Origin: a phage
Length of the DNA stretch: 44,574 bases
Sequence record: PX063913.1
Reading direction: 5' to 3' (one strand)
Of this stretch, positions 8,095 to 17,122 are shown one piece after another. The position numbers and the translations under genes are program-made. The stretch's first letter is position 1; each line of letters opens with the position of its first letter. The notes under the pieces are model-generated. The model did not search any database. It worked only from the letters and a program-made list of their open reading frames with translations, and was not told the DNA's origin.

Positions 8095-10382
8095 TTTCTG
8101 TACCTGTACATAATGTCGCCTTCCGCGGCAAGCGGGAAGCCTTTCGCCCAAACAGGCAGGTCGCACATCAGCGCGCACAACTCCTCGGTTGTGTAGTCGT
8201 CGGTATCCGGCACTTCGGTGATCAGTTCATCGTGTACGGACAGTACGATCTCATACCCCGCAGCTTCAACGCCCGGCATGGACCATGCGAGGATATCGCG
8301 GCACAGCGCCTGCACGATGTTTTCCGTCAGTTTGCCGCCGTAGGTGTACTGGAATCCCCACTGGCGCGTCGTCTGATTCTCACCCTGATATTTAATGCGG
8401 GTGCTGGTGCGCTTCTTGCCGGTGTCTTCGTCGATCTCGGTCGTCACTGACAGCGCAATGCCTGGGTAACTCATAATACGCCCCGACGGCAACTCAATTT
8501 TCAACCACCACCCCGCGGCGTTCGGGTCGTCGCGCTCCTCGTCGAAGGTTGGGTCATGCTTCGCCTTCGTGCGGACTATCTTGAGCGCTTTCTTACCATC
8601 CGGGCGAACGTTCGCGCCAGCCCAGTACGCTTTGCCCGGATTGCGGATTGCACACAACACCGCGTCCTCAAGCTCGGCCCAAAAAGCTACCGTCTTCGGG
8701 TGAGCCTCGCGCCACATGCGTTTAATCGCATCACACGTAAGCCATACGTTTTTCGGCAGTATGTAAGTCGGACGCTCGTCCTTCTTGCCCGGCTTCGGCG
8801 GTCGCTTCGCTTCGTTAATGCGGGCGTATTCATAACCACGTTTCGCCGCCGCCCAAATGTGATCGGGGAATGTGCCCTTCATCACTTCCGCCATCGCGTA
8901 AAGGTCGAGGCCCAGATTTTTAGCGAACTGCAAGAACGCCGCCACGCCACCACCATAGCCCAGGCCCAATTCGCACGCCTTACCGATCTGGCGTAAGTCT
9001 TTGCGGTTGGCTTTAATGTATTCTGGGTCAAGGCCGAACATCTTGCCGGCAGTCTCACAATAGATATCGCGACCGGCCCTAAACACCATTAGCGCGGTTT
9101 TCTCGCCAGCGATCCAGGCAAGTCCACGCCCTTCCACGTTGGAGTAGTCCGCTACGACAAACTTCTTACCCTTCGCCGGAATAATGCACCCGCGGACAGT
9201 CGAGGCCGTTAGCTTCGATATGTCATACGCCCAGTGCGCTGTCCCACGTAACAGGGAGTTGATGCCGTTGGTGAGCATGTGCGACCGCACCCAAAAAGCG
9301 ACGTCGCTCTCGCCTTCACGGCGTTTAATCTTCCCTTCGTGGTCGTCGCTATATTCGCCGCGTGCCAGGTTTTGCGGCTGGAAGCCTTTACCGGCCCAGC
9401 GTAGCGTGCGCTTTGCGCCGCCATACTGAAGACACCCACGGCGGCGACCATCGGCGGATAGGCCATTAACGAGCGGATTGTACTTAGTCGACGCCGTGGA
9501 TGACGCACCGAGGCGCATCTCGATAAGCGCTTTGCCTTCGTCCGGGAAGTCTGGATCTTCCAGCAGGTCGTTAAGCGTGGATTTCTGCGCGTTGTGGATT
9601 GTGAACGCAGGCGCGAGGTCGCGCAGCGCGGGCAGGAAGTCATTGCCGGTTAGCTTACCGCCGAAGCGCTCCCAGGCTTCTTCCTTTAATTCTTCCTTAT
9701 GCGCCTGTACCGCTTTGATCGCAGCGCGTGCCAGGTCAACGTCCACATAGAAGCCGCGGTCGTTAATCAACTGGTCAATAAGCAGGATTTCGTCTTCCTT
9801 CGGCGTATTACCCCAGTCCGGTATGCGCCAATAGACTTCCCTCATCGCGATGATATCCAGCGCGGCATAGCGCAGGAATTTAGCCCATTCTTCAGGGTGA
9901 GTCTCGCGGGTGTAGCGGCGGATTTTGTAGGTCTTAGGGGTTGGCTTACAGAAGCGTTTGATCAGCGCCTTGCCAGCCTTATCCTTCGCGTGTTCTGCGT
10001 CAACGCCCAGCACCTGGCATTGCATGTCGAGACTACCCGGCAGCGCGTGTCGGAAGGCCATAATCATGGTGTCTTCGATCTGGCCTACCGGCAGGTCAAT
10101 GCCCCACTTCTCGCGAATAACCAGGCGGTCAAACAGGAGGCCGTTAGCCATCACGATTTTTGCTTTCTTGCGAGATACCCGGCGGAGCGCCTTGCGCAGT
10201 TCACGCGGCATTGTGGGGGACTCGGTGCAATCCCATGTCTGCACGCGGCCCTCGTCGATGGCGTAGGTGCAAATCATAATCTCGGTGGTTGGGTGCTCTG
10301 CGTAGGCGTATGCGCCAACTTTCTTCAGGTCTACCCCGCTAAATGTCTCGGTATCGAGAAACAGGCGTTCGAAGTCTTTCAT
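8091..10382 (-). CDS. DNA polymerase, family A, with 3'-5' exonuclease domain
   Basis: Exo I LFLDTETFSG, Exo III YAALDIIAM, Pol motif A VVADYSNVEGRGLA, motif B RQIGKACELGLGYGGG, motif C VLSVHDELI. Confidence 0.95.
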   Translation of the reverse strand: MKDFERLFLDTETFSGVDLKKVGAYAYAEHPTTEIMICTYAIDEGRVQTWDCTESPTMPRELRKALRRVSRKKAKIVMANGLLFDRLVIREKWGIDLPVGQIEDTMIMAFRHALPGSLDMQCQVLGVDAEHAKDKAGKALIKRFCKPTPKTYKIRRYTRETHPEEWAKFLRYAALDIIAMREVYWRIPDWGNTPKEDEILLIDQLINDRGFYVDVDLARAAIKAVQAHKEELKEEAWERFGGKLTGNDFLPALRDLAPAFTIHNAQKSTLNDLLEDPDFPDEGKALIEMRLGASSTASTKYNPLVNGLSADGRRRGCLQYGGAKRTLRWAGKGFQPQNLARGEYSDDHEGKIKRREGESDVAFWVRSHMLTNGINSLLRGTAHWAYDISKLTASTVRGCIIPAKGKKFVVADYSNVEGRGLAWIAGEKTALMVFRAGRDIYCETAGKMFGLDPEYIKANRKDLRQIGKACELGLGYGGGVAAFLQFAKNLGLDLYAMAEVMKGTFPDHIWAAAKRGYEYARINEAKRPPKPGKKDERPTYILPKNVWLTCDAIKRMWREAHPKTVAFWAELEDAVLCAIRNPGKAYWAGANVRPDGKKALKIVRTKAKHDPTFDEERDDPNAAGWWLKIELPSGRIMSYPGIALSVTTEIDEDTGKKRTSTRIKYQGENQTTRQWGFQYTYGGKLTENIVQALCRDILAWSMPGVEAAGYEIVLSVHDELITEVPDTDDYTTEELCALMCDLPVWAKGFPLAAEGDIMYRYRK

Positions 10383-10549
10383 TGCTTAATCCTCACCACG
10401 GCGTCAGCACTGCCGATCACGGAGAAGATGCCGTCGGAAAGGGTAATCTCCTCGCCGTTGTTGCGAATCTCGGCAACTGTGAAATATTCGCCCAGCATTT
10501 TGGACCATACTTGCATTCCGACTTTTACTTCGCTGGCTTTAATACGCAT
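10379..10549 (-). CDS. Small hypothetical protein (not in ORF track)
   Basis: 56-aa ORF MRIKASEVKVGMQVWSKMLGEYFTVAEIRNNGEEITLSDGIFSVIGSADAVVRIKQ; AGGA 9 nt upstream; stop overlaps the polymerase ATG (ATGA). Confidence 0.45.
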   Translation of the reverse strand: MRIKASEVKVGMQVWSKMLGEYFTVAEIRNNGEEITLSDGIFSVIGSADAVVRIKQ

Positions 10550-10565
10550 TTTTCATTGTCCTATT

Positions 10566-10589
10566 AAAAAGCCCGCATTAAGCGGGCTT
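10566..10589 (-). terminator. Rho-independent terminator (minus strand)
   Basis: On the minus strand AAGCCCGC-ttaat-GCGGGCTT followed by T5, just downstream of the SSB gene stop. Confidence 0.6.
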
Positions 10590-10607
10590 GAATAGTGGGC
10601 TTTGCCC

Positions 10608-11330
10608 TTAACGGCGGCGACGTTTACGTGGCGCTTCGTCTTCGTCATCATCGTCGTCATCGCGGCGCTTGGACTTTTTGGACTTGCGCGGCTTGTCCTC
10701 TTCGTCATCGTCATCACGACGTTTTGACTTTTTGGACTTGCGCGGGCTTTCATCTTCGTCATCGTTGTCCAGGTCTTCGTCGGAGCAAGAAGAACCGCCA
10801 CCGCCGAAGGATTCACCATCATCGCGGAAGCGCAGACCCAAAAGACCAGCACCGAGTCCCTTGCCGTTGGTATTGTTCCACGCCCAGATATCGAGTGACA
10901 CGTTGCAATAACAACCGGAGTAGATCTCCTGGCCTTCGATCTCGTCGCCTTCTACGGTCAGACCTTGTTCCGTCTGCTTCTCGCCGAGTGACGTTTGAAT
11001 GATCGGCTGTTTGAACGATTTGGCGTTGATGTACAACATGCCTTCGAATTCTTCGGTTACTTCGTCGCGCTCGTCACCGTCGCGAACTGCGCATTCCTTA
11101 GAATCCTGGGCGTAGTGGCGGTCCATCCACTTATCAGCATTCTTCTCGGATTTCAGCTTGTCGGTGAGCACTGCGCGCGCTGCCGCTTCCACTTTGTCCA
11201 CCTGCGGATCTTCTTTATCCAGAAGAATCACTGCACGGTATGCCGGTTTTTGACCATCCTGTTTAGGGGTATCGCGTTCCCAAATTTTAAGGAAACATAC
11301 GCGCACATTTTTCAGGTTGACTTTAGCCAT
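10608..11330 (-). CDS. Single-stranded DNA-binding protein (DUF2815 / T7 gp2.5-like)
   Basis: Start at MAKVNLKNVRVCFLKIWE (ATG 11330); YSGCYCNVSLDIWAWNNTNGKGLGAGLLGLRFRDDGESFGGG matches the DUF2815 SSB family. C-terminus is a tandem-duplicated acidic/basic tail ending RKRRRR. Confidence 0.6.
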   Translation of the reverse strand: MAKVNLKNVRVCFLKIWERDTPKQDGQKPAYRAVILLDKEDPQVDKVEAAARAVLTDKLKSEKNADKWMDRHYAQDSKECAVRDGDERDEVTEEFEGMLYINAKSFKQPIIQTSLGEKQTEQGLTVEGDEIEGQEIYSGCYCNVSLDIWAWNNTNGKGLGAGLLGLRFRDDGESFGGGGSSCSDEDLDNDDEDESPRKSKKSKRRDDDDEEDKPRKSKKSKRRDDDDDDEDEAPRKRRRR

Positions 11331-11420
11331 TTTCCAATTCCTCATTTTCACATGTATCGGGGTTATTGTGAGCCACCCCGTTCGGCTTGGTTGTTAATCT
11401 ACTTGGTTGCACCTAAGCGG

Positions 11421-11663
11421 TCAAGCATTTTCGTTAAAAAGATTTCGGGTCACGTAGTTAGTGGCGTTCTCGATCCAGCTTAACGGCGGTCGGTCGATGT
11501 TCTTCTCCACCCAGTCGACGGCAGCGTCACTATACCCGTCATCCAGCCAGCGGGTCGGATGACGAATCATCCACGCCACCATTAACACGCCTTGCACGCA
11601 ATGCAGGATAAAGCCCAGCGCACCGAGCAAAAACATCAATAAGATTGCAAATACTTTATTCAT
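11421..11663 (-). CDS. Small membrane protein
   Basis: N-terminal hydrophobic helix VFAILLMFLLGALGFIL; GAGGA upstream of ATG 11663. Confidence 0.5.
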   Translation of the reverse strand: MNKVFAILLMFLLGALGFILHCVQGVLMVAWMIRHPTRWLDDGYSDAAVDWVEKNIDRPPLSWIENATNYVTRNLFNENA

Positions 11664-13086
11664 TGCTTAAGTCCTCGTCAGTAGCTTCTGACCACGCAGG
11701 ACGCGGGTCGTCGATCGGTGCTAACACCGGTTTAGCTGGCGCGCGTGTGATTTTATCACACAGCTTAGCCCACACTTTCGGTTTTTCGTCCTTCAGTACC
11801 TTCTCGGCATCCGTAGGGCTGAGCAATGTTTCTTTGTACATCACATCGCGCTTGATCCGGGCCTTCGTGAAGATTTCAATCGCTTCGCTCTCGTCCGCCC
11901 ACTTGCGGATCCCTTCCTTACCGGCGACCATCTTGAGGCCCAGCGATTCGCCGTCGCCCGCCATTACCGCCTTGAATACCGCGGACTCGATAGCCTTGAT
12001 GTGCTGGCGCATTGCGCCCAGGCCTTCATAAGCCTTGCGCAGTTCCGCCGCGCTCATAGCGCCTGGTGTGGATTCATTCTTGCCTCGTTTAGCACGTCGG
12101 GCAGCCTTCCGGGCTTCACGGGCCATGTTGCGATCGTGGTTGGCGCATTCTTCCTCGGTAGCCACGCTCACGTCGTCGCCCAGGTCTTCGTCGGTTGCCG
12201 TTGGTGGTGTCATAGTGTCGATTGCGGCCTTCGCCCGGACGCTGCACTGGTCCGCAAATCTGCACCACTGGCACGCATCAACGCTGGGCCGGAAGTCGGC
12301 GCGGGTGAGTCCTTTTTTACCACGGGCGTACGCTTCCAGTGCGGCGATAGCACGCTTGGACGCAAACTTCGCGAATATCTCCAGCGCTTCCACTGAGATA
12401 TCCCACTCTGACGCCCCGCCGCAATACGGCTGGAAGATAACCAGGCGCACGGTCGTAATGTCGTACATGGTTTGCAGCTTGCGCAGCAGGCCGAGCGCGT
12501 ACAACATAAGCTGTTTGTTTTCTTTTGCCTCGACCTTATGTCGCCCGGTCTTCAGGTCGCCAACAATCAGCATGTACGTGCCGTCGGTCTTTTTCATGAC
12601 CATGACCATATCGGCAGTTCCGAACGTCTTAACCTTGTTGCCGTCGATCTCGAAGCCTGAGTGAAGGACGCGGGTAAGATCGGCGCGCATCTCAAGCTGG
12701 ACAAACTCCGCCACTTCAAGGAGCGGACGCCAGTGGTCGATGTATGCATCGCACTGCTTCACCATGTCGTCGTTGACCAGTACGCCGCCTTTCGGTGCTT
12801 TCGGGTGGGCCTTTACTGGCCCCTTGCCTTCGTTCTCGACGTAGCACCCTTTATACGTCTTTGCTGTTATCAGCTTTTCACCGGCGATAATGCGGTTTAG
12901 CACCACTTCAGATACGGTGTGCATACTCGTACCGTTAATCGCGGCTTGCCCGGATTCGTTCGGGATATCTTTTTCCACCACCAGGGCGGCGGGACACCCC
13001 ATCCATTTTTTAGCACCGGATGGGCCAAGTAATGAGTGTTCCGTATTACTACCGGATTGCGTTTTACGTTTTGGTTTAATCGCCAT
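11656..13086 (-). CDS. PD-(D/E)xK nuclease, DUF2800-like (RecB/Cas4-type)
   Basis: N-terminal HSLLGPSGAKKWMGCP and C-terminal Cys cluster CQWCRFADQC are typical of the DUF2800 family that accompanies DUF2815 SSB in phage replication modules. Confidence 0.65.
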   Translation of the reverse strand: MAIKPKRKTQSGSNTEHSLLGPSGAKKWMGCPAALVVEKDIPNESGQAAINGTSMHTVSEVVLNRIIAGEKLITAKTYKGCYVENEGKGPVKAHPKAPKGGVLVNDDMVKQCDAYIDHWRPLLEVAEFVQLEMRADLTRVLHSGFEIDGNKVKTFGTADMVMVMKKTDGTYMLIVGDLKTGRHKVEAKENKQLMLYALGLLRKLQTMYDITTVRLVIFQPYCGGASEWDISVEALEIFAKFASKRAIAALEAYARGKKGLTRADFRPSVDACQWCRFADQCSVRAKAAIDTMTPPTATDEDLGDDVSVATEEECANHDRNMAREARKAARRAKRGKNESTPGAMSAAELRKAYEGLGAMRQHIKAIESAVFKAVMAGDGESLGLKMVAGKEGIRKWADESEAIEIFTKARIKRDVMYKETLLSPTDAEKVLKDEKPKVWAKLCDKITRAPAKPVLAPIDDPRPAWSEATDEDLSNE

Positions 13087-13574: not shown

Positions 13575-14117
13575 TTAGTCTTCCAGTTCGAAATAAGTTT
13601 CGACGATTTCTTTTAGCTCGGTGTGGAAGTCTTCGACGTCGTCGTCTTCCAGTTTAGCGATTGATTTGATCTCGAACGATTCCAGCAGGTCGTCGAATTC
13701 GTCGTTCGCATCATCATCATCGCCGCCTGCAATAATAGCGGCATACTGTTTGATTTCGTCGCGCATCTCTGCCAGCGGGTCGGCTTCTTTCTTACCTTTC
13801 CCTTTCGCTGGTGCTTTTTTACCCTTCGCCGGTTTTTCGTCTTCGGCTTCATCATCATCGTCGTCATCCTCTACGACTTCTTTTTTGGCCTTTCCTTTAG
13901 ACTTGGTTTCTTTTGCCGCGCCTTTTTTCGCCTTGGGCGTATCTTCGACTTCGTCCTGATCGTCGTCTTCGACTTCAGTCTCCGGCTTGGCCTTGCCTTT
14001 CTTAGCGGTGCCGTTTGCTTTTGGGTCTACGGCAGCGCCCACAGTTTCATAATGTTTAGCGATGGTTTCCAGTGCTACTACGCCGCGAGTGATCAGGTTT
14101 ACGATTTGCTCAAACAT
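13575..14117 (-). CDS. Highly charged acidic/lysine-rich early protein
   Basis: Start at MFEQIV (ATG 14117, GGAG 8 nt upstream). The upstream part of the long track ORF runs through the promoter. Alternating poly-D/E runs and K-rich runs (KKGKAKP, KGKKAPAKGKGKK). First gene downstream of the leftward promoter. Confidence 0.6.
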   Translation of the reverse strand: MFEQIVNLITRGVVALETIAKHYETVGAAVDPKANGTAKKGKAKPETEVEDDDQDEVEDTPKAKKGAAKETKSKGKAKKEVVEDDDDDDEAEDEKPAKGKKAPAKGKGKKEADPLAEMRDEIKQYAAIIAGGDDDDANDEFDDLLESFEIKSIAKLEDDDVEDFHTELKEIVETYFELED

Positions 14118-14313
14118 GGTATATCTCCGATTGGTTAAGTTTAGGTGTCGACCATTAACTTCGTCGGTGGCCTTAACATAGAGCCAGGTTACGCGTTCTC
14201 CCTTTCGGGTAGTGGACCTGGTTATATAATCACGGTTGGGAATCCTGACACTTCGATCCGGCCCCTGCGTTGCCCCTCTCCAGTTTGCGTCCTGCATCCT
14301 GTCGACGAGGTGA

Positions 14314-14342
14314 ATATTAGATTGGTTGCAGAAGGGAGTCAA
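14314..14342 (-). promoter_or_regulatory. Leftward sigma70-like promoter
   Basis: Minus strand reads TTGACT, 17-nt spacer, TAATAT; the spacer contains the ATTGGTTGCA motif. Confidence 0.5.
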
Positions 14343-14457
14343 CAACTAATTTAAAAAAAAAGCGCCGAAGCAAAATGCGACGGCGCTAACCAATAAGAGA
14401 CAATGAGACGGGAGTATTATTACACGCGTGCGCGCCCGTTTCAATATTCCAAAGGAG

Positions 14458-14857: not shown

Positions 14858-17122
14858 ATGAGCTTAATTAAATTCGCTGTAACACGACCCGCTAAAAAAG
14901 GCGAAAAAGCCAGGGCGGAAAACTTCCAGATGACCACCGATGAATTTTTCGAATTTATCAATGACGCGAAAGAAATCTCATCGGTGCACATCAACAAGAC
15001 CGAGGATAAAGCCGAGTATGCGCGCCGCAAGCGTAAGGCCGACGGCATCGTGGCATATACCAGTGACGGCCTCCGCCGTAAGACCAGTGCGGTTGACCGC
15101 TCGATCCTGTTCTTTGATATTGACCGCACCGACACTCGCACCTTACGCCGCTGCCGCAAAGCGTTCATTGACGCGGGTCTGGAACACGTATTCCACACCA
15201 CTACCGGCGACCGTCACCCGCTTAAAGGCGGCACGCGTTGCGCCCGTTTCCTGGTGCTCACAGACAAACCCGTACCGGCGGAAGACCTGGGCCGCGTGCA
15301 GTACGCGCTGTTAGACCAACTGGGCCTGTCTGATGTGGACTTCGACGACTGCACGAAAGATACAAACCGCCTGATGTACCTACCACACCAGCAGTCTGTC
15401 ATTAAGTGCCACTACGGAAAGCGCGCCAGTGTGCGTCGTCTGCTTCGCCGGGCTGACAAGCTGGGAGTGGAGAAAGAGGAAGTACGCCGCGAGCTTACCC
15501 AGGGCGACGACGCAGTGGCGGACGGGATTCTGGACTGGTGCTTCCAGGCAGGATTCGAGGAGTTATCTTCTGGTCGCGGTTATGAAGTGCCGTGCCCGAA
15601 CGAACATCTGCACAGCGGCGAAGGGTCGACGGCTATCATGGTCAAGGATGGCGAGATCCGTTTCAAGTGTATGCACACCGGCAACGAGTGTTGCTCTGAG
15701 CTAAATAGACACCAGCACCTGGCGCTACGTCTTATCGGGATACCGGACCACCTGAACGTCGAGCCGCACAACATGTCACGCAAGCAAATCGCCGCCATCC
15801 TCCCCGGACTGGACGACGAGGAAGTCGAATCCTTATATGATCACATTGTTGATGCGGTTGGCGACGGCGAAGAATATGGCGTGTGCACCGATGCGGATCT
15901 GGATAACGAGCCGGTCGCACTGTTCAGCAAGCACGACCCGATCATCGAGGGGTTGATTAACTTTAAATCGACCTGGTATATGGCGGGTGAGTCGAATATC
16001 GGTAAGTCTTTCTATGTGCTGGGGCAGATGGGTGCGGTTGCCGCGGGTATTCCGTTTGGCGGTGCGAAGGTCGTCCAGTCTCATTGCTTCTATTTCGACG
16101 CGGAAGGCGGCGAAGCCTCCAACCAGCGCAAAGAAGCATTGCAGATTAAATATGAGCACGACCTCGACAAGCTGCACATTATCGATCTGCAGTCACGCGG
16201 CTGGGATATCACCAGCAAATCAGGCTTGCGCGAAGTTATCAGCTTTATCAACCGCACCGCTAACGGCGAACCGGTTGGCCTGGTGGCGTTCGACTCACTC
16301 AACCAAACTGTTGCGCTGCGGTCCGCCGATGCCAAACCGTTTGACGAGAACAACGCCAGCGATATGGGTGAAGTGGTCAAAGCGCTGAAGACCATTGCGG
16401 AAAATACAGGTGGCAGTGCGGGCGTCATACACCACCCGGCGAAGGGTGCAAACGGCAGCAGATCCCCGCGTGGGTCCGGTGCGCTTCATGGCGCTGTCGA
16501 TTCCGCTTTCTTCCTGGAACAGCCGGACGACAACCAGCCGGGACAACTTAACCTGTACCACGAAAAATCACGTAACGGCATCAAGCAAGCGCCGCGTGGC
16601 TTCGTCCTGCTCAAGTGCAAGGTGGCGGTAGATCTCCGCAAGTCAGAAGCGTTCGCGTCGCACCAGTCCACCAGCACCGGGCCAGACTTCGGCGACGTAG
16701 TTGCCGGTTGGGACGTCAAACCAATTGCATCCACGCCTCGCGACGAGACTCTGTACCTCGTACCGGTCGCCCTGGCACCGTTCGCTATAGAACAGGCGAA
16801 GGCCGCGGGCAAAGCCGCAGTTAAGGAAGAAAACGCCGCTGGTCCGCGCAACGAAAAAGAGAAAGTGCTTTATGCGGCCCTGGAAAAACTGATGGAAGAT
16901 AACCCGAACCATACTGGTTTCAGTAAATCGGCAATCGTCCGCCAGGCGGGACTCGCTAAGGGTGGCACTTCGACGAAGGCAATCGACGATATGGTCGAGC
17001 GCGGCGTGATTGGTTTCTATACAGATCCGCACACCGGGGCCATCTATGGGTCGTCGAATTTAGTCATCAAATCGGATATCCCCATCACGCTTTCGGCGAC
17101 CGATGATGACCTGAAAGATTAA
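14858..17122 (+). CDS. Primase-helicase (AEP-type primase domain fused to P-loop ATPase)
   Basis: N-terminal ILFFDIDRTD and HVFHTTTGDRHP resemble archaeo-eukaryotic primase motifs; central Cys/His cluster; Walker A GESNIGKSF and Walker B LVAFDSLN in the C-terminal half. Confidence 0.75.
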   Translation: MSLIKFAVTRPAKKGEKARAENFQMTTDEFFEFINDAKEISSVHINKTEDKAEYARRKRKADGIVAYTSDGLRRKTSAVDRSILFFDIDRTDTRTLRRCRKAFIDAGLEHVFHTTTGDRHPLKGGTRCARFLVLTDKPVPAEDLGRVQYALLDQLGLSDVDFDDCTKDTNRLMYLPHQQSVIKCHYGKRASVRRLLRRADKLGVEKEEVRRELTQGDDAVADGILDWCFQAGFEELSSGRGYEVPCPNEHLHSGEGSTAIMVKDGEIRFKCMHTGNECCSELNRHQHLALRLIGIPDHLNVEPHNMSRKQIAAILPGLDDEEVESLYDHIVDAVGDGEEYGVCTDADLDNEPVALFSKHDPIIEGLINFKSTWYMAGESNIGKSFYVLGQMGAVAAGIPFGGAKVVQSHCFYFDAEGGEASNQRKEALQIKYEHDLDKLHIIDLQSRGWDITSKSGLREVISFINRTANGEPVGLVAFDSLNQTVALRSADAKPFDENNASDMGEVVKALKTIAENTGGSAGVIHHPAKGANGSRSPRGSGALHGAVDSAFFLEQPDDNQPGQLNLYHEKSRNGIKQAPRGFVLLKCKVAVDLRKSEAFASHQSTSTGPDFGDVVAGWDVKPIASTPRDETLYLVPVALAPFAIEQAKAAGKAAVKEENAAGPRNEKEKVLYAALEKLMEDNPNHTGFSKSAIVRQAGLAKGGTSTKAIDDMVERGVIGFYTDPHTGAIYGSSNLVIKSDIPITLSATDDDLKD

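Follow-up and report, generated by a model that had tools for sequence, protein, structure and literature searches.

An alternating acidic and basic C-terminal tail with an internal DEDL motif in the single-stranded DNA-binding protein of Dhillonvirus coliphages

The SSB (single-stranded DNA-binding protein) of an Escherichia coli siphophage of the genus Dhillonvirus (sequence record PX063913.1; the whole 44,574-nucleotide stretch analysed is called the window here) ends in a long disordered tail in which acidic and basic blocks alternate and whose last residues are RKRRRR. This tail is real, non-random and conserved; it elaborates on a type of tail already known and does not amount to a new system. 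It consists of a Gly-rich linker followed by an acidic block with the motif D-D/E-D-L, then of internal modules, each an x-P-R/K basic run with an acidic run behind it, which number between zero and three in Dhillonvirus and up to about seven elsewhere, and finally of a terminal APRKRRRR that is invariant in Dhillonvirus. Sequence comparison indicates that the canonical acidic element has been kept, not replaced, and that the novelty would lie in the near-neutral extension downstream of DEDL. We interpret the tail as a disordered, regulatory composite, in which a conserved DEDL docking motif is joined to a variable-length block-polyampholyte spacer and to an oligo-arginine end that probably adds electrostatic contacts, and we put the probability of this reading at roughly 0.5.

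Read up to the stop codon, the C-terminus of the protein is ...FGGGGSSCSDEDLDNDDEDE-SPRKSKKSKRR-DDDDEED-KPRKSKKSKRR-DDDDDDEDE-APRKRRRR, so that the last 57 residues or so form three units of an acidic run and an xPRK basic run (Table 1). The first-pass annotation of this DNA had described a duplicated unit of about 57 nt, of mixed acidic and basic content and with a basic end. The repeat, the mixed charge and the basic end stand, while the unit size and copy number need correction. Tandem Repeats Finder reports a period of 54 nt at 10654-10765 (2.1 copies, 88% matches, score 173) and a separate repeat search found three in-register copies with spacings of 60 and 54 nt; the unit is therefore 54 nt (18 amino acids) long and there are three units, the last of them shortened. 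The 64-residue tail holds 25 acidic and 21 basic residues, which corresponds to a charged fraction of 0.72 and a net charge per residue of -0.06. These charges are strongly segregated: kappa is 0.54, compared with 0.105±0.048 for 5000 shuffled tails, none of which reached 0.54, and the sign of the charge changes only five times, compared with 22.9±3.3 times in 20000 shuffles, none of which was as low. In the AlphaFold2 (AF2) model, residues 171-240 have no secondary structure and a predicted local distance difference test score (pLDDT) of 40-58, and the last 53 residues of the protein include no aromatic or hydrophobic residue. Residues F175 and G178 of the linker are conserved in the family alignment. 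A search of the tail sequence against the PDB returned only a chance match to a legumin-like protein (E 0.84). By its charged fraction, net charge, charge segregation and predicted disorder, the tail is a block-polyampholyte disordered region, which is a descriptive class and not a homology family.

The DUF2815-like SSB core proposed at first pass is confirmed by a match to PF10991 (Enc34_ssDNA-bd, formerly DUF2815; E=4.6e-31, 108.3 bits against a cut-off of 26), which aligns residues 10-200 with profile positions 2-173 of 176 and so reaches the first acidic block. The protein also matches phrog_112, 'Gp2.5-like ssDNA binding and annealing protein' (E 4.5e-54), and its sequence matches in the PDB are 4klk, 4jg2 and 5odj (Enc34 ORF6). 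The AF2 model, built on 31 homologs, has as its top Foldseek matches 5odl_A (E 2.3e-11, TM 0.74), 4klk, 4jg2 and 1je5 (E 3.6e-6); E. coli SSB structures appear in this fold search with an E of about 1 only. A profile search with PF00436, the bacterial SSB family, gave no match, and the protein has no IPF tip. A preference for ssDNA has been demonstrated for the PF10991 member Enc34 ORF6 (PMC5686142). The protein is the replicative and recombination SSB of the phage, with an OB-fold core of gp2.5/Enc34 type and a disordered tail.

The DEDL motif (10770-10781, minus strand) opens the first acidic block, in which D186 is invariant and L187 and D193 are nearly so among the 31 homologs. The same kind of motif closes two other proteins of the replication module. 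Considering all 144 open reading frames (ORFs) of at least 60 amino acids in the six frames of the window, D.DL occurs within the last nine residues of just two, the helicase-primase and the DUF2800 PD-(D/E)XK exonuclease, the latter of which has a further, internal copy (Table 1). Related loci carry matching motifs on the same three proteins (Table 2), and in other lineages the tip differs in several proteins at once: in locus L025 the SSB ends ..DDDDI and the exonuclease ..QWDDDI, in Enc34 the tips are ..DEDEV (SSB), ..DDDEV (exonuclease), ..DEDEV (primase) and ..EEEEV (ORF3), and in T7 they are ..DEDGDF (gp2.5) and ..SNDTDF (gp4). The two T7 tails have one binding site in common, namely basic patches on the polymerase. 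From these alignments the shared tip appears to be lineage-specific and to change in step across lineages, a pattern which points to a single docking site used in common by several proteins of replication and recombination. We infer that DEDL serves this SSB for docking and autoinhibition, with the repeats extending the tail downstream of it. As to the altered interaction mode that the first-pass annotation considered possible, the acidic element is still in place, and the new part is the near-neutral stretch behind it. The loci with a shared tip are the window, L021-L025, L027, L028, L030 and L031.

To follow the number of units, 19 Dhillonvirus SSB alleles were extracted (15 IMG/VR loci, four GenBank records and the window), and the distribution of allele lengths was inferred from the BLAST spans of 55 spread-out GenBank records that cover the region, together with five fetched records. 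Phage welsh has one unit (202 residues, ...DEDLDNDDEDE-APRKRRRR); EP23 and P-GXEC-L2P5 have two units each, the window, JL1 and HK578 have three, and SECphi18, rolling and most others (10 of the 19 extracted alleles) have four. The four-unit class also accounts for 43 of the 55 records, which are 48-69 nt longer than the window; nine others lie within 12 nt of it, one is 48 nt and one 114 nt shorter, and one is 106 nt longer through a duplicated 3' end. Judged by these lengths the three-unit allele of the window is a shorter, minority form. It lacks the KPRKRRKPR unit of most relatives, and HK578 lacks the second KPRKSKKSKRR unit; because each misses a different one, losses of different internal units from a four-unit architecture are indicated. 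Between units 1 and 2 of the window there are 6 differences in 33 nt, most of them synonymous, yet each unit is identical over 33 of 33 nt to its ortholog in JL1 and in locus L001. With orthologous units identical and paralogous units diverged, the duplication must be older than these three phages. The recent repeat expansion put forward at first pass is accordingly not borne out: units differ between paralogs yet match their orthologs, the four-unit allele is modal, and distant relatives share the architecture.

Whatever the number of units, both ends of the tail are maintained. The DEDL block and APRKRRRR are kept in every complete Dhillonvirus allele and all tail insertions and deletions are in frame. 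Comparing 16 alleles codon by codon, we found that 15 end in ...DEDEAPRKRRRR (L012 has DEDK), and that the terminal eight codons differ only synonymously in all 16 (GCG/GCA, CCA/CCG/CCT, CGT/CGC). Over the SSB core (residues 1-176), the window is 98.9-99.4% identical to its sister Dhillonviruses SECphi4/6/18, HK578 and JL1, and in the 5.2 kb around the SSB locus it shares 97.5% identity with phage JL1 and 93-95% with many other phages.

Several of the records compared have peculiarities of their own. The record of Escherichia phage P-GXEC-L2P5 (PQ843332.1; our locus L019) is 88.6 kb long, about two genome lengths, and at around 850-1100 fragments of the SSB 3' end (..DDDEDEAPRKRRRR, then stop) recur with the terminator past the stop codon, so that some three copies of the end are present; the probable cause is local tandem duplication or an artefact of assembly. 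In L014 (IMGVR_UViG_3300045988_003101) the contig stops inside the SSB tail, and its translated end, 'AVSYTHLRAHET', is presumably read-through into a sequencing adaptor rather than a real allele. Two records labelled 'Acinetobacter phage NJ01' (OQ221563.1) and 'Campylobacter phage A144' (MG065648.1) encode an SSB 99.4% identical to those of E. coli Dhillonviruses, and NJ01 is also about 95% identical over 5.2 kb; the host labels of both look doubtful.

The first-pass annotation had also allowed that relatives might show the same tail with a known function. The tail, though not a known function for it, does occur in relatives: hundreds of phages carry an acidic/basic tail of this kind. A homolog search across 5.8 billion proteins was complemented by a HMMER search of 1.84 billion cluster representatives, from which the best 150 family members were taken, 139 of them with a complete core. 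Down to a core identity of about 42% (range 42-57%) the relatives all have alternating blocks, with two to five units and mostly an RRRR end. Cultured examples are Klebsiella phage 37P2 and Hafnia phage TS33, as well as Kagunavirus Golestan, which has one unit (...DDEEEDE-APRRERRRR), and Salmonella phage SE1 (Guernseyvirinae), which has two and an acidic end (...RPRKKRRSYEDDEE). In the sample of 139 clusters, 110 have short, acid-only tails, most of which end in F, A, I or L and some in ..DDDIPF or ..DDIPY; basic blocks are combined with a basic end in 15 and with an acidic or hydrophobic end in 14, so that tails with basic blocks make up about 20% of the sampled family clusters. The longest reach eight units (P0087, 313 residues; P0111, 318; P0143, 329). 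For 20 of the 29 alternating-tail proteins the nearest neighbour by core sequence is also alternating-tailed, and tail type thus appears to follow core phylogeny, imperfectly.

Two features of composition stay regular even where these tails cannot be aligned. At 73 of 93 acid-to-basic transitions a proline follows the acidic run at a distance of no more than three residues, compared with 2.8% proline further into the basic blocks, and the acidic count rises with the basic count as 1.19 times the latter plus 4.6 (r = 0.92). Alternating tails are 2.6 times longer than acid-only tails (median lengths 66 and 25), and their median net charges are -7 and -8, respectively: because acidic and basic counts scale together, the net charge of the two tail types is equal. 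The extension behaves as a nearly neutral insert which leaves the canonical net negative charge in place.

The ORF in full spans 10608..11351 on the minus strand, and an in-frame GTG at 11351 would give a protein of 247 residues. The start is probably the ATG at 11330, giving 240 residues, to judge from the GAGGA that sits 8 nt upstream and from MAKVNLKN, which is the N-terminus of all relatives. The stop is a TAA at 10608-10610. That the true stop lies upstream and is concealed by a sequencing error, as considered at first pass, is excluded: in 18 of the 19 Dhillonvirus alleles the frame runs on to ...APRKRRRR, and the remaining one (L014) is broken off by the end of its contig. Support for a false C-terminus could be sought in the neighbouring frame, which is open across the entire tail (10553-10852), and in two database proteins, P0005 and P0008, that run into it. 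We consider the probability of such an artefact to be negligible, since every complete allele stops at the same position with the terminator next, a cluster of 537 members has the frame of the window, and the GAN/AAR/CGN codon composition leads one to expect an open alternative frame. An overlapping gene or programmed frameshift in the tail appears unlikely for like reasons, P0005 and P0008 being single-member clusters as against the 537-member cluster. The neighbouring frame amounts to a 99-residue ORF on the minus strand that is open past the SSB stop too, and P0005 (from phage vB_EcoS-22664B1) and P0008, SSBs frameshifted into it, end ..GKAHYSSPLNAGFLIGQ; their frameshifts are most likely indel errors coupled with a stop-poor codon composition. 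The hairpin that follows the SSB stop has a folding energy of -24.6 kcal/mol (z -4.23; none of 200 shuffles folds as well) and is labelled 'terminator' in some related records. A simple terminator scan of the window did not include it among its matches; RNA folding supports it. For the promoter side, escape mutations in the SSB promoter have been reported in sister phages (bioRxiv 10.1101/2022.08.27.505566).

Among known systems, one of the nearest is ORF6 of the Enterobacter/Hafnia phage Enc34 (PDB 5odj/5odk/5odl), which belongs to the same Pfam family and has the same fold. The gene order is alike (DUF2800 exonuclease, SSB, family A polymerase, with the primase upstream), and so are the disordered, net-acidic tail after an F-G-x-G segment and the sharing of the tail motif with other replication proteins. 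Core identity is only about 22%, however, and whereas the Enc34 tail has about 29 residues and is purely acidic, that of the window has 64, with three basic blocks, an RKRRRR end and an internal acidic motif, DEDL. T7 gp2.5, an SSB and annealing protein, is a structural homolog (1je5) with 13-15% identity. It shares its acidic tail motif with gp4, paralleling the occurrence of DEDL on SSB, helicase-primase and exonuclease in the window, but it has a free acidic C-terminus with an essential aromatic residue, as stated for deletion of F232, and neither basic blocks nor repeats, in contrast to the oligo-arginine C-terminus found here. The view taken at first pass that the basic end sets this protein apart from characterised T7-type SSBs is thus correct, T7 gp2.5 ending ...DEDGDF and Enc34 ORF6 ...WDEDEV (PMC5686142). 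E. coli-type SSB likewise combines an OB fold with a disordered linker and an acidic docking motif (tip DDDIPF); the window SSB differs in not belonging to PF00436, in having no IPF tip and in its basic end. T4 gp32 has a basic, Lys/Arg/Ser/Thr-rich N-terminal 'LAST' motif for cooperative binding and an acidic C-terminal domain for partners. The PRKSKKSKRR blocks resemble a gp32 LAST-type element by analogy only: gp32 is of unrelated fold and family (with no Pfam match in the window SSB), and its basic and acidic parts stand at opposite ends instead of being interleaved.

Nearer in sequence are the SSBs of SECphi4/6/18, HK578 and JL1, which have the same tail architecture and differ only in the number of units (one to four) and a few residues, JL1 having the same three units as the window. 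The SSB of SECphi4/6/18 is documented as an SSB and as the trigger of Retron-Eco8, and that of SECphi4 triggers the retron when co-expressed (bioRxiv 10.1101/2022.08.27.505566); the SECphi4 SSB is also cited as binding the multicopy single-stranded DNA (msDNA) of the retron. The protein family, the genes and the SSB of this group are therefore already known, and the tail sequence is present in hundreds of database entries. In the literature searched, which did not cover the 2025 Mol Cell papers on Eco8, we found no description of an alternating acidic/basic repeat tail or an oligo-arginine end for any SSB.

How might such a tail work? On the composite reading, the DEDL block would take the role of the canonical T7-type tail, competing with ssDNA for the OB groove, and would share its docking site in the replisome with the helicase-primase and the exonuclease, whose tails end in DEDL. 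Extra salt-sensitive contacts would come from the basic blocks, foremost the terminal oligo-arginine, and would reach either nucleic acid or acidic blocks and tails that belong to adjacent SSB and partner molecules. In free SSB they may be masked by the flanking acidic blocks, and in DNA-bound SSB they could become exposed and promote SSB-SSB cooperativity and strand annealing. Unit number would shift readily, by recombination or slippage between repeats, and would tune length and valency without being essential. Work on related proteins gives precedent for a function of the tail: Enc34 ORF6 without its tail loses discrimination between ssDNA and dsDNA and binds dsDNA too (PMC5686142), the T7 tail governs dimerisation and binding kinetics, stabilising dimers and slowing binding (PMC10359462), and Gp2.5-like proteins, which are found paired and clustered with exonucleases of the RecE-like type, carry out DNA annealing in vivo (PMC2896510).

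A number of observations weigh against this scheme. The role given to the basic blocks is argued from composition and analogy. DEDL is internal in the SSB, whereas it is C-terminal in the helicase-primase and the exonuclease, and the internal copy may not bind a common site as well as the terminal ones do. In the distant, repeat-tailed P0087 (L026, a 2.8-kb contig) the exonuclease ends ..MEDEGE, unlike the ..DDDDY of the SSB, so covariation of the tips is not universal. Phage welsh, with its single unit, is viable (it was isolated as a plaque former), which means that the internal units are dispensable, and this fits neutral drift in length as well as it fits 'tuning'. Further afield, 14 alternating-tail clusters end acidic or hydrophobic and 15 basic; because about half thus do without it, the basic end is not needed for the repeat architecture as such. 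Finally, the published SECphi4 SSB shows residues 1-186 only, the 'flexible C-terminal residues' being omitted and the tail left without discussion (bioRxiv 10.1101/2022.08.27.505566).

We have considered several other ways of explaining the tail. The basic blocks, chiefly RKRRRR, might themselves be the main protein-interaction element, serving as receptor for the helicase-primase and exonuclease with their acidic DEDL tails or contacting the polymerase at an acidic patch. This would take the place of the T7 scheme, where basic patches of the polymerase are bound by an acidic SSB tail. Such a charge-reversed arrangement would fit the invariance of the terminal oligo-arginine block, which is under purifying selection, and the need of the two acidic tails for a basic receptor, and several basic blocks could form a multivalent hub. 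We nevertheless think it unlikely. Enc34, the SSB of which has no basic block, and T7 have the same arrangement of shared acidic tips, so the receptor in those phages is not an SSB basic block; the window SSB retains its own copy of the acidic motif; and related repeat-bearing SSBs end acidic (..YEDDEE in Salmonella SE1, ..DDDI in L025). A second proposal is that the internal units are tolerated filler, produced by slippage and recombination of GAY/GAR- and AAR/CGN-rich repeats, and that the first acidic block alone is functional. The one to four copies among isolated phages with SSB cores about 98-99% identical, the absence of KPRKRRKPR from the window and of KPRKSKKSKRR from HK578, so that different internal units are missing, and the plaque-forming welsh isolate all speak for it. 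We regard a largely neutral expansion as distinctly improbable, however, given that alternation, junction prolines and charge balance persist in lineages whose tails cannot be aligned, that the terminal block is invariant with synonymous variation only, that all indels are in frame with no allele lacking the basic end, and that the four-unit form prevails (43 of 55 records).

In a further possibility, the tail would cause SSB-coated ssDNA to associate with itself multivalently (complex coacervation) and to form a compartment for replication/recombination, and might do so together with the phrog_3127 protein, a second charge-block protein of the module with alternating Lys-rich and acidic blocks. 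A charged fraction of 0.72, a kappa of 0.54 and a near-zero net charge per residue define a regime that favours intermolecular electrostatic association in disordered proteins, and the up to eight repeats of some relatives suggest that valency matters. Against this stand the shortness of the tail and the viability of the one-unit allele, and composition alone is no proof of phase separation; we consider a condensate scaffold quite improbable. In a speculative and rather improbable extension of the idea, the tail is a multivalent 'sticker' which, in combination with the acidic DEDL ends of helicase-primase and exonuclease and with the phrog_3127 protein, would assemble SSB-coated ssDNA into an electrostatic condensate or hub of replication/recombination, the repeats setting its valency. 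If true, the terminal oligo-arginine would represent a mode of contact between SSB and partner, or between SSB and DNA, that is undescribed for bacterial and phage SSBs. We continue to favour the composite of docking motif, spacer and oligo-arginine end.

The textbook picture of bacterial and phage SSBs is an OB fold with an acidic tail, the tip of which recruits partners. Coliphages and Salmonella phages of a large and readily cultured group (Dhillonvirus, Guernseyvirinae) depart from this rule at the extreme C-terminus and apparently retain the acidic docking motif internally. Tractable phages are at hand in the BASEL collection, HK578 and SECphi18, the SSB has already been studied as a trigger of Retron-Eco8 and other defence systems, and a natural allelic series of one to four units is available. 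Because the phages are tractable and this series exists, the role of the charged tail in autoinhibition, cooperativity, annealing and partner exchange can be tested directly. The lineage-specific motif shared by SSB, helicase-primase and exonuclease widens the T7 gp2.5/gp4 principle to many more phages, and, at a practical level, constructs made without the 'flexible C-terminus' of these SSBs lose a conserved element.

Table 1. Features of the SSB gene, its tail and the proteins that share its acidic motif, in window coordinates.
Feature	Position	Strand	Remarks
SSB gene	10608..11330	-	240 residues plus stop; Enc34 ORF6 / T7 gp2.5 type
OB-fold core, residues 1-170	10821..11330	-	AF2 pLDDT 89-98; strands and helices as in Enc34 ORF6
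Gly/Ser-rich linker DDGESFGGGGSSCS (FGGGGSSCS part), residues 171-183	10782..10820	-	pLDDT <50 for residues 173-184
First acidic block DEDLDNDDEDE, residues 184-194	10749..10781	-	Canonical acidic tail element; conserved motif
Basic block 1, SPRKSKKSKRR, residues 195-205	10716..10748	-	
Acidic block 2, DDDDEED, residues 206-212	10695..10715	-	
Basic block 2, KPRKSKKSKRR, residues 213-223	10662..10694	-	Paralog of block 1, 27/33 nt identical
Acidic block 3, DDDDDDEDE, residues 224-232	10635..10661	-	
Terminal basic block APRKRRRR, residues 233-240	10611..10634	-	Same in all 18 complete Dhillonvirus alleles
Terminator-like hairpin AAGCCCGC-UUAAU-GCGGGCUU, then UUU	10566..10589	-	RNA folding; between SSB stop and next gene (ATG 10549)
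Promoter-like site TTGACC-17-TAGATT, upstream of SSB gene	11396..11424	-	Consensus scan alone; 1 site found, 1.2 expected
Helicase-primase C-terminal DDDLKD (in ...SATDDDLKD)	17102..17119	+	CDS 14858-17122
DUF2800 PD-(D/E)XK exonuclease C-terminal DEDLSNE (in ...EATDEDLSNE)	11659..11679	-	CDS 11656-13086
Second exonuclease copy, internal, TATDEDLGDD	12181-12192	-	

Table 2. Acidic motifs at the C-termini of helicase-primase and exonuclease, and in the SSB, of related loci.
Locus	Helicase-primase	Exonuclease	SSB
L021	..ASDEDLE	..ATDEDLE	ATDDDL
L022	..ASDEDLNS	..ASDEDLS	ANDDDL
L023	..DDSDLEN	..VKDDLGD	DDNDL
L024	..SDSDLED	..NDDDLAD	ATDDDL
L027	end outside contig	..TSDSDLA	SEDDL
Salmonella SE1	..EEEDLEN	..TDNDLAN	ATDSDL

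The genes around the SSB are arranged in the order exonuclease, SSB, 56-residue protein and PolA, with the helicase-primase operon divergent. The phrog_3127 protein belongs to the same replication module and lies at 13575-14117 on the minus strand, where it starts at Met77 of a 256-residue ORF (13575-14345). It has alternating Lys/Ala/Pro-rich and acidic blocks (..TPKAKKGAAKETKSKGKAKK-EVVEDDDDDDEAEDE-KPAKGKKAPAKGKGKK..), followed by 'NDEFDDLLESFE', which is like the SSB tail, and then by an acidic C-terminus; homologs are found in L022, L023, L024 and Salmonella SE1 (gp16). The 56-residue protein (phrog_10102; 10379-10549, minus strand) is encoded between the SSB terminator and the polymerase, and an 80-residue protein (phrog_11211; 11421-11663, minus strand), hydrophobic by sequence, between the exonuclease and the SSB promoter. 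The positions of both are conserved in L021-L024. The family A polymerase adjacent to the SSB has 763 residues in the window and 1030-1062 in some relatives (L027, 1266-4358; L019), and that of phage Pubbukkers is annotated as 'intein-containing'; the longer forms look like the result of a mobile insertion in the polymerase gene.

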